From assembly GCA_963828165.1 (NCBI GenBank), contig CAWHDR010000001.1:640001-704000 (forward strand): a stretch of 64,000 nt of DNA. Direction: 5' to 3'. Each line of letters starts with the position of its first letter. The stretch's first letter is position 1. The notes below the pieces were generated by a model that saw only the letters and a list, made by a program, of their open reading frames with translations, did not search any database and had not been told where the DNA came from. A program made the translations under genes and the position numbers. Source of the DNA: an uncultured Chloroflexia bacterium (GTDB lineage: Bacteria > Chloroflexota > Limnocylindria > Limnocylindrales > CSP1-4). This document shows, piece by piece, positions 12,196 through 32,767 of this stretch.

Positions 12196-13728
12196 GTGCG
12201 CCCGAGCCTGAACATGCTCGCCCCCGAGCTCATCGAGCGGATCGTCGACGAGGCGAAGCGGGTGCTGGCCGAGGTCGGGATGGAGATCCGCGGGGCGGAG
12301 ATGCGTCGCCGGCTGCTCGAGGCGGGTCTCCCGACGAACGCCACGGGCGAGCGCGTGCTGTTCCCGAGGGCCGTCGTGGAGCGAGCGATCGCGGACGCGC
12401 CGCGCGCGTTCACGCTGTACACACGCGACGGGGAGCCGCATGCCGACCTCGGCGGCGATCGCGTCCATTTCGTCCCGGGCTCGTCAGGCCTCAAGACCCT
12501 GGACCATCGGACCGGAGGGGTCCGCCTCGCGAACTCCACCGACTTCGTCGAGTACGTCCGCCTCGCCGACGGCCTGGAGCACATCGCCTACCTGGCGACG
12601 GCGTTCTCGACGAACGAGGACATCGAGCCCCAGGTGTCCGATGCGTGGCGCCTGTACATGACGCTCACCAACTCCAAGAAGCCGGTCGTGTCGGGCGCCT
12701 TCACGGAGCACGGCGTCGGTCGGATGGTCGAGATGATGCAGCTCTTTCGGACCGACCGCGCCGACCTCATCGCGCGCCCCATGTCGATCTTCACTATCAC
12801 CGCCACCGGCAACTTCCGGTACAGCGAGGACTCCTGCCAGAACCTCATCGACTGCGTCGAGGCGGGCATCCCGGTCGAGATCGTGCCGGTGACGCTCATG
12901 GGCCTGATCGCGCCGGTCACGACCGTCGGCGCGACGGTCTTCCACACGGTGGACGTGCTGGCCGGCATCACCATGGCCCAGGTCATCAAGCCCGGGGCGC
13001 CGGTGCTGTTCGGCGGAGCGCCGGCAACGTTCCACATGAAGGTGGCGAGCTCGCCGATGTCCGCCATCGAGGCGCTCCAGCTGGATGCCGCCTACGTCGC
13101 GGTCGCCAAAACGCTCGAGCTGCCATGCCAGTCGTACATGGCCCTCTCGGACGGGCCGATCCTCGACGCCCAGGCCGGCGCGGAGACGTTCGGGAGCGCG
13201 TTGATCGCAGCGTTGGCTGGCGTGAATTCCGTCAGCGGCCCCGGCATGCTGGACTTCTTGCTGGTCTTCAGCCTGCCCAAGCTTGTCTTCGACAACGAGA
13301 TGTGCGGCCAGGCGCTGCGCTTCGTGCGCGAGATCAAGCCGATCGACGACCTGCCGGTGGGTGCGCTCATCGACCAGCTGATGGCGGATCAGCACTTGAT
13401 CATGGCCGACCACACGACGGCCAACTGGCCGAGCGAGCTGTACCTGCCGTCGACCATCGTCGAGCGGGATAACCGCGAGAACTGGACGAAGGCCGGGGCC
13501 AAGGACACGTACCAGCGCGCGATCGAAGAGGTCGATCGGCGGCTCGCCGCGTACCGGCCGCTCGACACGGATCCGGCGATCGATGCCGAGCTTCGGAGGA
13601 TCATCGCCTCAGGCCTGGAATCGCAGACCGAGCTGCCGTACGTGCCGCCCGCCGCGGAGCCGACGGCGGCGGCCCTTGCGCAGCAGGCCGGACCCGTGCG
13701 CCGTCGCAACCCGCGGCGCGGCGGCTGA
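12196..13728 (+). CDS. Trimethylamine methyltransferase (MttB) superfamily protein, non-pyrrolysine
   Basis: [50 protein letters not shown]...KLVFDNE; no in-frame amber. Confidence 0.9.
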
Positions 13729-13735
13729 CCGGACG

Positions 13736-14434
13736 GTGCCGACCGAGCCATCAGCCGACGCGGCCAAGGAAACGCGGACCACGTCGGACGACACGCTTCC
13801 CGAGCAGCCCATCGGTCGCGAAGGGCGCCTGGTCCGTCTCCGCGAGGCCACGCGTCGGGACGCCGCGGTCGTGGATGCGCGGGACGCCGATCCTGCGGTC
13901 CGCGGCGAGTTCAACGACCTGGGCCAGCCGCCGCCCAAGCCACTCGCAGAGCAGCTCGCGGGCGGCAAGCGGATGGTGAGCGCGGAGCGAGGGCGACTCT
14001 TCGTCGAGCGCCTCGAGGATGGGGCGCTCATCGGTGACGTGAGCTGGCATCCGGTCATGTACGGACCGAACGAGCAGTCGCGGGCCCTGAACATCGGGAT
14101 CGCGCTCTACCCCGACGCCCGTGGCCACGGCTTCGGGGCGGAGGCGCAACGGTTGCTGGCGGAACTACTCCTCGAACGGTTCGACGTGCAGCGCGTCGAG
14201 GCCAGCACGGATGTCGACAACGTGGCGGAGCAGCGGTCGCTGGCCAAGGCGGGCTTCACGAGGGAGGGAGTGGTCCGCCGGGCGCAGTTTCGCGCGGGAG
14301 CACACCACGACCTTGTCACCTACTCGTTCGTACGTGACGACCTCGAACACGGCGTTCCGCGGGGCTCGCGGACGAGTGATGGCCGGCGCGGGGACCGCGC
14401 CGGCCATCGTGACTGCGTTCGACGCGGAGACTAG
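13736..14434 (+). CDS. GNAT acetyltransferase (RimJ/RimL-like)
   Basis: PDARGHGFGAEA acetyl-CoA motif, NVAEQRSLAKAGFTREG. Confidence 0.9.
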   Translation: MPTEPSADAAKETRTTSDDTLPEQPIGREGRLVRLREATRRDAAVVDARDADPAVRGEFNDLGQPPPKPLAEQLAGGKRMVSAERGRLFVERLEDGALIGDVSWHPVMYGPNEQSRALNIGIALYPDARGHGFGAEAQRLLAELLLERFDVQRVEASTDVDNVAEQRSLAKAGFTREGVVRRAQFRAGAHHDLVTYSFVRDDLEHGVPRGSRTSDGRRGDRAGHRDCVRRGD

Positions 14435-14658
14435 CGGTCGTCCAATAGCTGCGGCTCGCCGGTGCCCGGCAGGAGCAGGTCAGCGTCGAAGGCGGCGTCC
14501 GCCTCCGACCACTCCCGGTTCTCCTCGCGGTGGGCGAGGATGTGGAAGAGGATCCACAGCGCGATCCCGATGATCGCGAGCGGCACCTCCGTGCCCGGGA
14601 ACGGATACAGCGGCCCGATGTCGGCCGGGTTGCTGAACGACGTGAGTCCGGTGTTCAT
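14431..14658 (-). CDS. Small single-TM membrane protein coupled to the Amt gene (75 aa)
   Basis: ATGA overlap with the Amt stop, GGAGG RBS; GPLYPFPGTE followed by TM LAIIGIALWILFHIL. Confidence 0.75.
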   Translation of the reverse strand: MNTGLTSFSNPADIGPLYPFPGTEVPLAIIGIALWILFHILAHREENREWSEADAAFDADLLLPGTGEPQLLDDR

Positions 14659-30567: not shown

Positions 30568-30572
30568 CGAGC

Positions 30573-31169
30573 TCAGCGCTCGCTGTCGGCCTGGGGGTCG
30601 GCCTCCGGCCGGCCGGTGAACGTGGTCGCCGGTGTGCCGACGACGTGGTCCGGGCGCGGCCCTGGGTCGCGGCGGATGTCCTCGATCGGCTCGGGGACGA
30701 GCTCACCGCCACGGACGGTCGCGCCCAGGACGATGGCCGCGGACACCAGCACCACGTTCTTGATGATGTACTGGCCTTCGAGCGTCGGAGCGAACGGGAA
30801 GATGCCGAACGTCTCGGTCGGGAACAGGAACAGCGGCGTGATCGTTCCCAGCATCTGGACGAACAGGATGAGCAGGGTGAACCGCATCCAGCGTCCGATG
30901 AACAGGCCGATCCCGATGGCCATCTCCCAGACCGCCAGGATCGGGAGCGCCACCGCGGTGGGGATCGCGCCCAGGGTGAGGGCCTCGATGGTCCGCCCGG
31001 CCAGGGTCTCGGCAGGACTGAGGCCCGGGAACAGCTTGAGGGCCCCGAACCAGAAGAAGACGATGCCCAGGGCGAAGCGCAGGAGGGTCAGCCCGTGGGC
31101 GGCCATCCATTCCGTGATGCGCCGATCGAGATGCTCGAACCAGCGCGGCGCTCTCGTCATGGTCCGCAT
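30573..31169 (-). CDS. DoxX family membrane protein
   Basis: [42 protein letters not shown]. Confidence 0.85.
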
Positions 31170-31231
31170 CGCCTCCGTTGTGTGGTCGTCGGTTGTACCA
31201 CGGAACGGCGGGCGGGGCGGTGCCTGGTCAC

Positions 31232-32767
31232 CTAGGCCGTTCCGGCCTCGATCTGGCGTTTCCGACGAGCCACGAATGCATCGAGCGCCTCCGCGACAGA
31301 AGGGTCCAGCGGTGGCGGGACCGCGTCGGCCAGCAGGCGTTTCCAGATGCCGTTGGCCCGTTCCGTGGCGGTATGCGAGCCGTCCGCCTGCCACGTCTCG
31401 AAGTTGCGCCAGTCGGACACCATCGGCTCGTAGAAGGCGGTCTCGTAGCGCTCCAGCGTATGGGCCGTCCCGAAGAAATGGCCACCCGGCCCGACGTCAA
31501 CCATCGCATCGAACCCCAGGGATCCCTCGTCGACGACCATCGGCTGGAGGACCTCCGAGATCATCTGCAGGATCTCGGCGTCGACGATGAGCTTCTCGTA
31601 CGAGGCCGTCAGGCCGCCCTCGAGCCAGCCGGCTCCCTGGTACAGCAGGTTCACGCCGCCCATCACGGCGCCCCAGACCGCCATCTCGGCCTCGTACGCG
31701 GCTTGCGCGTCGACCACGTTCGAGGCGGTCGCGTTCGACGATCGCCACGGCAGCCCGTAGCGCCGCGCCATCTGGCCGCTCGCGAACTGGGATTTGACCG
31801 ACTCGGGCGTCCCGAACGCCGGTGCTCCGGTGCGCATGTCGACGTTCGAGGTGAACGCGCCGTAGACCATGGGCGCCCCCGGCCGCACGATCTGGGCCAG
31901 GGCCACGAGAAACAGCGCCTCGGCGTTCTGCTGGGCGATCGCACCAGCAAGCGAGACCGGGCTCATCGCCCCGGCCAGCGTGAATGGCGTCGCGACGACC
32001 GGCTGCCCGTGCAGGGCCATCTCGATCAGGCCGTCGCTCATCGGGCCGTCCAGGCGCAGCGGCGAGTTCGTGTTGATGATCGTGATGAGCGACGGCTCGC
32101 GCGCGAGGACGTCGCGGTCGATGCCGCGGATGAGCGTCGCCACCTCGATCGCGTCGTCGACGACCGTGGCGCCCGTGCCGAGGCAATGCCACGTCTTGTC
32201 GAGCTCGGTCGCGAACGTCCGGTACTGATCGAGGTGGCGGGTCTCGACCGGCAGGTCGGTCGGTTCCAGCGGGCCGCCACCCTCTTGGTGGAGCACGTCG
32301 AGGGCTCCGATGAGTCGCACGTAGTCGACGAAGTCGGCGAAGTTGCCCGGCCGCCGACCGCGGTCGAGGTCGCTCACGAACGCCGGCCCACCGACCGCAC
32401 AGAAAACCAGGTTCGTGCCGCCGAAGAGCACGTTGCGCTCGGGGTTCCGCGCGTGCAACCGGAACTCGCGCGGAGCCGCCGCCACGAGGGATTCGACCTG
32501 CGCGGGATCGACACGGACCATCCGTGTCGCCCGATCCACCTCCGCTCCGGCCCGGGCGAGCGCGTCCAGCGCCCGGTCTCCAAGAACCTCCATCCCGATC
32601 TCGGCAAGGATGCGGAGCGACGCGACGTGAATCGCCTCGACCTGGTCGGCCGAGAGGATCTCGATCGGGCGATACGGGTTGACCAGGCGTCGCCACGGGA
32701 GCTGGCGGATCCCGGGCGCAGCGCGCCGCGGTCGACGCCGGGAAGCGTGGGGCTCGGGCACGGTCAT
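31232..32767 (-). CDS. Trimethylamine methyltransferase (MttB) superfamily protein, non-pyrrolysine
   Basis: [67 protein letters not shown]. Confidence 0.93.

Follow-up and report, generated by a model that had tools for sequence, protein, structure and literature searches.

Positions 14375..30585 of a 64,000-nucleotide stretch of the genome of an uncultured soil Chloroflexota bacterium (G000:C1:640001-704000; hereafter the window, with positions counted from its first letter) carry a 16.2-kb cluster of genes for the oxidation of dimethylamine (DMA) and monomethylamine (MMA). The cluster is flanked by two genes of the MttB methyltransferase superfamily, mttB1 and mttB2. The analysis performed in this study makes it likely that this cluster is a self-contained, laterally transferred DMA/MMA island inserted in the spacer of a resident mttB pair, and that the two MttB proteins are separate from it, being MtgB-type enzymes with quaternary amines as substrates. 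The insertion would lie between a GNAT acetyltransferase gene and a doxX gene, in the variable spacer of an older convergent pair of gene groups, TPP-mttB1-GNAT and doxX-mttB2-macAB (TPP denoting a gene for a thiamine pyrophosphate-dependent enzyme). The pathway is of a known kind; it is newly seen in the class Limnocylindria, on a laterally mobile 16.2-kb module.

The insertion was revealed by comparison with the nearest relative of the region, locus L178 of genome G328 (98% identity for the TPP enzyme, 96% for MetH, 96-97% for MttB1 and 93% for MttB2), in which the genes are ordered TPP-mttB1-GNAT-doxX-mttB2-macAB and the island is absent. Window positions 9367-14346 align with L178 5174-10205 (88.7% nucleotide identity) and positions 30687-37375 with L178 10614-17566 (~84%), and about 0.4 kb of L178 stands in place of window 14347-30686 (16.3 kb). 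The final ~88 bases of the GNAT gene lie beyond the left junction (homology with L178 stops at 14346) and the 3' end of doxX lies inside the right one (homology restarts at 30687). No island was found elsewhere in G328, where a DNA query of 17035-30567 yielded only short matches of 65-72%. Because the closest relative has the pair with 0.4 kb instead of 16.3 kb, the flanking of the cluster by mttB genes appears to be an accident of insertion. The layout of the window is repeated, over two contigs, in G316 (TPP 95%, MetH 94%).

A second line of evidence is the discordance between the island and its hosts. In G001, whose resident proteins are 70% (MetH), 80% (TPP), 82% (MttB1) and 84% (MttB2) identical to those of the window's genome, the island shows 91% nucleotide identity and is colinear across all 13,533 bases queried. 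This homology spans window 14375-30585 (91-92.7%) in another genomic context, with the island at C4:0.963-0.978 Mb, mttB2 at 0.770 Mb and mttB1 at 1.057 Mb, and the boundaries derived from it agree with those of the empty site to about 100 bases. The residents of G005 are closer (MetH 83, TPP 89, MttB1 87 and MttB2 86%), whereas its copy of the island, located on a separate contig from its mttB pair, is only 76-78% identical at the nucleotide level. The cluster therefore shows the signs of a mobile island, namely presence/absence polymorphism, sharp common boundaries and an identity discordant with that of its hosts. DmmC was detected in three of 301 genomes of the class including G000; the other two are among 15 further sampled members of the genus, and 56 other genera gave none. 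A rearranged island was observed in G003 (L092, contig G003:C18), with soxA-soxD-mgsCBA on one strand, dmmDABC-XRE on the other, and gmaS and soxB farther upstream on the same contig (L272); the order of genes inside the module is therefore not fixed.

The resident pair is much more widely distributed than the island. We compared 23 window proteins (N-termini approximate) by tblastn with 80 mttB2 loci and their 10-kb flanks, a match being at least 45% identity over half the length, and surveyed the best 80 relatives of mttB1 with 8-kb flanks. An MttB1 orthologue (75-87%) was present in 22 of the 80 mttB2 loci, in the same convergent orientation and 1.3-8.3 kb away; 28 of the 80 mttB1 loci hold mttB2 and 24 hold the TPP enzyme. 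The enzymes and the regulator of the island were matched in none of the 80 mttB2 loci, one of which (L022) matches amt and the adjoining small open reading frame (ORF), and these two genes occur near mttB1 in only two of the 80 mttB1 loci, L180 (that of G316) and L207. Moreover, doxX adjoins mttB2 in 12 mttB2 loci, a HlyD match lies on the opposite side in 20, and GNAT follows mttB1 also in the island-free L178 and L181. Of 21 sampled genomes of the genus, 17 gave a match to MttB1 and 14 gave one to MttB2; in G322, G311, G317, G319, G313 and G321 the two share a contig, separated by 1.8-5.9 kb.

The spacer between the two genes carries unrelated cargo. In 14 loci it encodes DoxX, DUF6855, AHSA1, ArsR, S-adenosylmethionine-dependent methyltransferases, PD40, a D-serine-dehydratase-like protein, a GMC oxidoreductase, a short-chain dehydrogenase/reductase and an amine oxidase (66 of 95 spacer ORFs were scanned against Pfam, as were 58 of 102 ORFs of L001-L007, and absences there are lower bounds). 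A repeated DoxX/ArsR/AHSA1/DUF6855 group (DUF6855 at 239-248 bits) was noted in the spacers of L009, L017, L026, L055, L060 and L061, the last two of which also have a GMC oxidoreductase gene and a GCV_T gene adjoining mttB1. As for the island itself, ten dmm-positive Limnocylindria genomes were readable (G002, G323 and G326 were left out as too fragmented), and in six of these (G001, G003, G005, G324, G325 and G327) it is unlinked to either mttB. It lies inside the pair, with convergent transcription, in G000 and G316.

The properties of the two MttB proteins also point to a function apart from DMA. Neither gene contains an in-frame stop, amber included, so both are of the type that lacks pyrrolysine (non-Pyl), as the sequence-only reading of the window had already stated. 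Both gave full-length matches to PF06253 (MttB1 266.9 and MttB2 636.6 bits, with a gathering cut-off of 25), whereas with TIGR02369, the profile of the Pyl-type trimethylamine (TMA) methyltransferase, they reached 278.5 and 317.3 bits, short of the cut-off of 525. They can thus be placed in the non-Pyl superfamily and outside Pyl-type MttB sensu stricto. The top solved structure for both was MtgB of D. hafniense (2qne/9yce; 342 bits for MttB2, 174 bits for MttB1), and the scores with the trimethylamine methyltransferase 7xcl were 147 and 146 bits, respectively. We take 7xcl to be the Methanosarcina Pyl enzyme, its database name reading only 'Trimethylamine methyltransferase'. MtgB of D. hafniense is likewise non-Pyl, but it comes from an anaerobe in which its own corrinoid protein and methyltransferase are encoded alongside, while the window genes have neither in their vicinity; the Pyl-type enzyme shares PF06253 with them but differs in its amber codon and in the TIGR02369 score. 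Within G000, which contains five full-length PF06253 genes and one contig-end fragment, MttB1 is 25-30% identical to the remaining MttBs, and the closest paralogue of MttB2 (55%) is a third MttB flanked by dimethylglycine dehydrogenase (DMGDH)-like genes and an OpuAC transporter gene. The fragment (G000:C5:3-719) is spread over three frames, with a TGA, at the start of its contig. Two further irregular genes were noted in related genomes: an mttB1 match in two pieces (G002:C23:10785-12318) and an mttB2 orthologue with one in-frame TAG (G004:C2:1510514-1512031), which may be a pseudogene, a sequencing error or a gene with an amber codon.

The corrinoid machinery that such methyltransferases would use is encoded elsewhere. 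Neither mttB of the window adjoins genes for a corrinoid protein, a methylcorrinoid:tetrahydrofolate (THF) methyltransferase or an activase, and two such sets were found at a distance. The first (C1:1.008-1.048 Mb) comprises MetH, a methylenetetrahydrofolate reductase/homocysteine methyltransferase fusion, the top PF06253 scorer of the genome (766.7 bits), a RACo/RamA-type activase (L002:15552-17723), a pterin methyltransferase (L002:17677-18732) and a corrinoid protein (L002:19170-19943; B12-binding_2 + B12-binding). Beyond the corrinoid protein come genes for IclR, sarcosine oxidase, aldehyde dehydrogenase, the OpuAC transporter and a DMGDH-like protein. Judged by its gene content, this region is a glycine-betaine catabolic island; L002:5448-19943 and L003:5-16722 (G000:C1:1.013-1.045 Mb) hold a full set of aerobic MtgBCD-like glycine-betaine genes, and a gene for a small PF13769 protein was observed between the pterin methyltransferase and corrinoid protein genes. 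The second set (L005:6267-10763, G000:C1 ~0.246-0.251 Mb) encodes a URO-D-family methyltransferase, a corrinoid protein, a pterin-binding protein, RACo and a LacI regulator.

Aerobic use of this chemistry has a precedent. The glycine-betaine demethylase MtgBCD is known from R. pomeroyi and other marine bacteria and is reported as active in the aerobe R. pomeroyi (PMC12478193), in which dmmDABC was also identified (PMC5520151); genomes hold up to seven PF06253 paralogues with one MtgC/MtgD, and the extra paralogues are suggested to act in the same way on further methylated compounds. Because that study proposes that paralogues share one MtgC/MtgD, the elsewhere-encoded sets may serve MttB1 and MttB2 in trans. 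The two proteins would most likely be orphan MtgB-type substrate-binding modules acting with the corrinoid protein at G000:C1 ~1.027 Mb, which the RACo/RamA-like activase would keep reduced and from which the pterin-binding methyltransferase would unload the methyl group onto THF. As substrates the two would have quaternary amines that are not sources of DMA. The likeness to the aerobic MtgBCD system (PMC12478193) extends to the presence of five or six PF06253 paralogues in an aerobe, scattered from the corrinoid/pterin methyltransferase/activase set, and to a corrinoid set that here adjoins MetH and glycine-betaine catabolic genes. G000 differs in belonging to another phylum and in the distance of MttB1 from its paralogues, the best 80 relatives of MttB1 all being Limnocylindria-type metagenome-assembled genomes (MAGs).

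The island encodes a complete route of its own. The enzymes GmaS, Mgs and Mgd form the established N-methylglutamate (NMG) pathway, the steps of which are assigned here by family membership. All genes of the order from mttB1-GNAT to doxX-mttB2 that had been named from the sequence alone are present as intact open frames with strong Pfam and NCBIfam matches. An XRE HTH plus cupin regulator gene (HTH_3 + Cupin_2, PuuR-like; 16204..16851, minus strand) is divergent from mgsABC (17035..20041, plus strand, with mgsB at 17979-18692 and mgsC at 18689-20041), the consecutive genes of which carry GATase_6/7 (PF13522/PF13537), GXGXG (PF01493) and Glu_synthase (PF01645) domains. The true start of mgsA is probably the Met-Cys at 17050, because the N-terminus reads MVESIMCGI. 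Next come, on the plus strand, four genes for SoxD, SoxA-family, SoxG-like and SoxB-family proteins (mgd; 20054-20335, 20310-23249, 23246-23986 and 23983-25194), with TIGR01372 at 780.8 bits (under the cut-off of 1164) for the SoxA-family protein and TIGR01373 at 447.6 bits (under 529) for the SoxB-family protein. Further along the same strand, gmaS (25227..26612; ATG with GGAGG upstream) scored 571.9 bits with TIGR03105 (cut-off 469.6), compared with 304.9 bits for GlnA. The type III GmaS, the three-gene synthase and the four-subunit sarcosine-oxidase-like dehydrogenase, clustered together, thus identify the NMG half. The remainder, also on the plus strand, consists of dmmD (26644-27777; GCV_T + GCV_T_C), directly upstream of dmmA (27826-28437; NF041259 114.1 bits, cut-off 60; DmmA-like_N/C, PF22290 and PF22289), dmmB (~28434-29492; FAD_binding_6, DmmA-like_N, Fer2) and dmmC, for the haem-dependent N-demethylase subunit (29518-30567; PF11927 234.4 bits); the DmmA, DmmB and DmmC families with a co-located DmmD in the order D-A-B-C identify DmmDABC.

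At the left end, on the minus strand, lie amt (14655..16142; PF00909, E 4e-56) and a small ORF of 75 amino acids (14431..14658), in which one membrane helix was predicted by eye from the translation; the same small ORF stands beside amt in G316, G001, G004, G321 and G005. Amt and this partner would import (methyl)ammonium, and the XRE-cupin protein would govern the divergent operon. DmmABC is established as the DMA monooxygenase and DmmD as a THF-binding helper, with Ruegeria pomeroyi as the model organism (PMC5520151). In the window, DmmDABC would convert DMA to MMA, DmmD trapping formaldehyde on THF, and GmaS, MgsABC and the SoxDAGB-like dehydrogenase would take MMA through gamma-glutamylmethylamide and N-methylglutamate to glutamate and methylene-THF. 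Both DMA and MMA would presumably be taken from the environment. Neither tmm nor tdm is in the window, as noted earlier, and neither was found in the 87.7%-complete genome, in which the top FMO (flavin-containing monooxygenase)-like match to Tmm was 25.2 bits and the top match to Tdm 259.8 bits (cut-off 1100). All 13 matches to the Tdm profile are confined to profile positions at or above 372, which correspond to its GCV_T half.

The two halves of the island have different relatives, from which we infer a mosaic: dmmDABC would have been appended to a Chloroflexota-type NMG cluster. Outside Limnocylindria, DmmC is most similar to the proteins of Labrys, Mesorhizobium, Aminobacter and further Hyphomicrobiales (79-82%), followed by Mycobacteriaceae and Terriglobia (78-79%). 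For GmaS, the nearest relatives are from Limnocylindria (75-97%), a Dehalococcoidia MAG (72-73%) and Rokubacteria/Methylomirabilota (69-72%), and these carry colinear mgsABC-soxDAGB-gmaS in the absence of dmm; in all, 59 gmaS loci from different phyla show mgsABC in colinear arrangement with gmaS. In the Hyphomicrobiales loci, the other proteins reach ~73% (DmmD), 57-64% (DmmB), ~43% (DmmA), ~56% (MgsC), ~36% (MgsA) and ~41% (GmaS), and the accessory genes are also present there (XRE at 51-56%, Amt at 56-60% and, in L122, the small ORF at 54%). A recent transfer from Hyphomicrobiales, suggested by the DmmC identity, was considered and rejected in that form, in view of the low values for DmmA, MgsA and GmaS in the same loci, of the similarly close Mycobacteriaceae and Terriglobia DmmC proteins and of the Chloroflexota and Rokubacteria relatives of GmaS. 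DmmC is a slow-evolving protein. Another possible MttB/NMG-like neighbourhood was noted on contigs of MAGs of Desulfobacterales, which are anaerobes (L307, L313): MttB-family genes (27-31%) have gmaS-like (42-46%) and XRE-like (50%) genes no more than 10 kb away, and L313 adds mgs-like genes.

The same comparison places the island among known systems. The alphaproteobacterial dmmDABC and GmaS/MgsABC/MgdABCD clusters (R. pomeroyi DSS-3 and Methylocella silvestris; PMC5520151) have the same Dmm order, NMG families and accessory genes. The gene set is therefore not new, an equivalent amt-small ORF-XRE-mgsABC...gmaS...dmmDABC set being present in Mesorhizobium and further Hyphomicrobiales. For the locus L122 of Mesorhizobium, the identities to the island are 54% for the small ORF, 60% for Amt, 55% for XRE, 37/38/56% for MgsA/B/C, 45% for SoxB, 42% for GmaS and 74/42/60/81% for DmmD/A/B/C. 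Unlike these clusters, the island has a Chloroflexota host, forms a single compact 16.2-kb module with no tmm or tdm found, and has an NMG half closest to Chloroflexota and Rokubacteria versions. No description of such an island in Chloroflexota was found in the open literature, supplements and subscription journals being outside the coverage of that search; mttB-type genes in Limnocylindria MAGs are mentioned in PMC11264602.

Several observations weigh against the interpretation of the cluster as an inserted island independent of its mttB neighbours. No Pfam domain of an integrase or transposase that would explain movement was found in 12-36 kb; there are no direct repeats of at least 10 bases at the junctions, nor is there a tRNA gene at a junction. 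A 10-base inverted match at the junctions was taken as chance. The relatedness of the hosts was calibrated on four resident proteins only, one of which, MetH, may not be strictly orthologous, given that G003 of the same genus also scores 69%, and the genome is only 87.7% complete. Furthermore, the source of DMA is without explanation, since no tmm or tdm was found. A further difficulty is a recurrent proximity: in 4 of the 10 readable genomes, mttB1 stands no more than 2.5 kb from the end of the island that carries amt. Besides G000 and G316, these are G004 and G321, where the island lies outside the pair and amt, the small ORF and mttB1 are co-directional and 1.0-2.3 kb apart; outside this count, L207 (MttB1 85%) provides a fifth mttB1-small ORF-amt junction. 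Such a recurrence is not what random placement in a 3.3-Mb genome would produce. It reflects either a hot spot of integration, or a single ancestral insertion that was later rearranged, or selection for proximity, and the two layouts stand for no more than two independent events, within a single genus.

If selection was involved, the MttBs could act on quaternary amines unrelated to DMA, and their closeness to the island could have been favoured by a common THF C1 pool, by nitrogen release or by a shared neighbourhood and regulation. We consider this coupling unlikely, although it has some evidence on its side besides the recurrence in two layouts. FolD is encoded in G000, and in the 12 mttB1 loci that lack mttB2 the gene has a characteristic company: a Rieske/Ring_hydroxyl_A oxygenase gene comes next on the same strand in 11, and a GCV_T gene lies between mttB1 and the oxygenase, or after mttB1, in 5 (44 of 73 ORFs, plus 4 others, were scanned against Pfam, and absences are lower bounds). 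The oxygenase is GbcA-like (NF058607 210-219 bits, cut-off 670) and the GCV_T protein DmdA-like (~326 bits, cut-off 410). The MttB1 clade is thus habitually joined to O2-dependent and THF-dependent N-demethylation genes. The oxygenase-linked loci are L209, L210, L217, L224, L226, L228, L230, L233, L237, L243 and L248 (positions ~8001-12100), in which beta-CASP and CtaA/B genes precede mttB1. At G000 C1 ~0.614-0.617 Mb (L006:7778-11013) the beta-CASP-GCV_T-Rieske neighbours are kept, with no mttB1 between them, and mttB1 therefore has two alternative loci in the class. Against selection for proximity stand the small number of independent events in a single genus, the unrelated cargo of the spacer, as a recombination hot spot predicts, and the fact that the majority of dmm-positive genomes and almost every mttB1 locus lack the proximity; nor was a shared regulator or promoter evident, a promoter and terminator scan of 13600-17200 having returned 0 sites.

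From the same neighbourhoods a bolder proposal can be drawn, which we regard as improbable: the divergent MttB1 clade, specific to Limnocylindria, would work with O2-dependent N-demethylases, usually the GbcA-like Rieske protein and the DmdA-like THF protein and in some lineages the amt/NMG/Dmm island, so that soil Chloroflexota would remove the methyl groups of a single methylated amine by a mixed corrinoid-oxygenase demethylation. In its boldest form, MttB1 would demethylate TMA or tetramethylammonium in the absence of pyrrolysine and pass DMA to Dmm.

The sequence-only reading had gone in a similar direction. It proposed a hybrid route with MttB-type enzymes as upstream demethylases of a tertiary or quaternary amine. 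Spelled out, MttB1, MttB2 or both would act on such an amine (e.g. TMA without pyrrolysine, or tetramethylammonium) and feed DMA or MMA to the Dmm/NMG enzymes, replacing Tmm and Tdm. Such a route would fill the place of the missing upstream supplier of DMA. The corrinoid protein, RACo and pterin methyltransferase that it calls for do exist, the genome search having located the corrinoid sets away from the window, and the abutment of mttB1 on the amt end, co-directional with amt and the small ORF in G004 and G321, speaks for it. We nevertheless find it very unlikely, as it is supported neither by synteny nor by the geometry of transcription nor by the known chemistry of non-Pyl MttB proteins. 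Both mttB genes do bracket the cluster, but the bracketing results from insertion into an older pair. Conservation of mttB near dmm/mgs, which had been expected, was not borne out: in 22 of 80 mttB2 and 28 of 80 mttB1 loci the pair occurs without dmm or NMG genes, the closest relative L178 has both mttB genes at an empty site, six of ten dmm-positive genomes have the island unlinked, and amt accompanies mttB1 in only two loci. The equivalent gene set of the Hyphomicrobiales also counts against the proposal. Co-transcription is impossible in the layout of the window, because both mttB units converge on the island. The scores of 278 and 317 bits are far from the Pyl-type cut-off of 525, and MtgB fits both proteins better than 7xcl does. 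Of the six MttB superfamily members with identified substrates, five use quaternary amines and leave a tertiary amine with the carbon skeleton still on the nitrogen, which gives no DMA, and only the Pyl enzyme, which needs pyrrolysine, uses TMA (PMC12155760). The view of MttB enzymes as a hallmark of anaerobes is likewise outdated, given the aerobic MtgBCD described in PMC12478193.

Least probable of all is that the island was ancestral at this site, pair and island having once formed one unit, and that G328/L178, L181 and further relatives lost it by deletion: presence/absence alone gives no polarity, G316 has the layout of the window and L207 has mttB1-small ORF-amt in the same orientation, but this history is at odds with the 91% identical copy elsewhere in G001 (residents 70-84%), the only 76-78% identical one in the closer G005, the restriction of DmmC to three of 301 genomes and the spread of island-free, short-spacer pairs across genus and class.

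The resident genes around the island were delimited as follows. The acetolactate-synthase-like TPP enzyme (10381..12096, minus strand; Pfam TPP_enzyme_N/M/C; start at 12096 or 12105) is divergent from mttB1 (12196..13728, plus strand), which starts with GTG at 12196 after an AGGAGG Shine-Dalgarno sequence, its longest ORF beginning at 12160. The GNAT gene (13736..14434, plus strand; PF13302, E 1.4e-15) may start at 13583, 13676 or 13736. On the right, the gene of the doxX-family membrane protein (30573..31106, minus strand; PF07681; start at 31106 or 31169) is downstream of mttB2 (31232..32767, minus strand), and MacAB-like HlyD/ABC/FtsX efflux genes (32773..35944, plus strand; Pfam) are divergent from the latter. 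The sole tRNA gene in 9-36 kb, tRNA-Gly(CCC) at 9263-9338 (plus strand), is 5 kb from the left junction; colinearity with L178 begins directly past it, at 9367. No riboswitch was found in 9-36 kb (Rfam). Farther upstream, the window holds a gene (4417-7881, plus strand) for a 1154-amino-acid fusion of CheB methylesterase, CheR methyltransferase, PAS and histidine-kinase ATPase domains, followed by a LuxR-type response regulator (8084-8692). Because of the high GC content of the stretch (~70%), genes were called by third-position GC bias and then scanned against Pfam and NCBIfam. The GC content of the island (0.665-0.743 per 2-kb bin) is indistinguishable from that of its flanks.

The window lies in an assembly of 3.31 Mb in 6 contigs (completeness 87.72%, contamination 2.1%) that also encodes a haem-copper oxidase subunit I (COX1). 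We assign the host to Chloroflexota, class Limnocylindria, because the closest relatives of MttB1 (78-97%) and MttB2 (70-89%) are almost all from Limnocylindria or Chloroflexota MAGs, labelled Candidatus Limnocylindria/Limnocylindrales, Chloroflexota or 'uncultured Chloroflexia', with proteobacterial homologues of MttB2 reaching 50-64% identity at most; the suspicion of a non-proteobacterial host was thus justified. Among the best 80 relatives of MttB1, only four MAG contigs carry odd labels. The loci L258, L026/L200, L199, L069 and L253 are labelled Actinomycetes, Saccharimonadales, Patescibacteria, Polarisedimenticolia or Steroidobacteraceae, although their genes are 78-97% identical to those of Limnocylindria, and these labels are probably binning errors in the source MAGs.

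The results extend the aerobic DMA/MMA pathway, described mainly in Proteobacteria, to the Limnocylindria, a class seen here chiefly through MAGs of uncultured soil and sediment bacteria, and indicate that the whole pathway moves between lineages as one compact 16-kb module. They also call for caution in annotation: mttB genes flanking such a cluster mean, in this case, insertion into a variable spacer and not a pathway, and the label 'Trimethylamine methyltransferase' on genes of this kind is no sign of TMA use. Should the remaining association of mttB1 with the island prove functional, it would point to an unrecognised mixed corrinoid/oxygenase demethylation of amines in soil.

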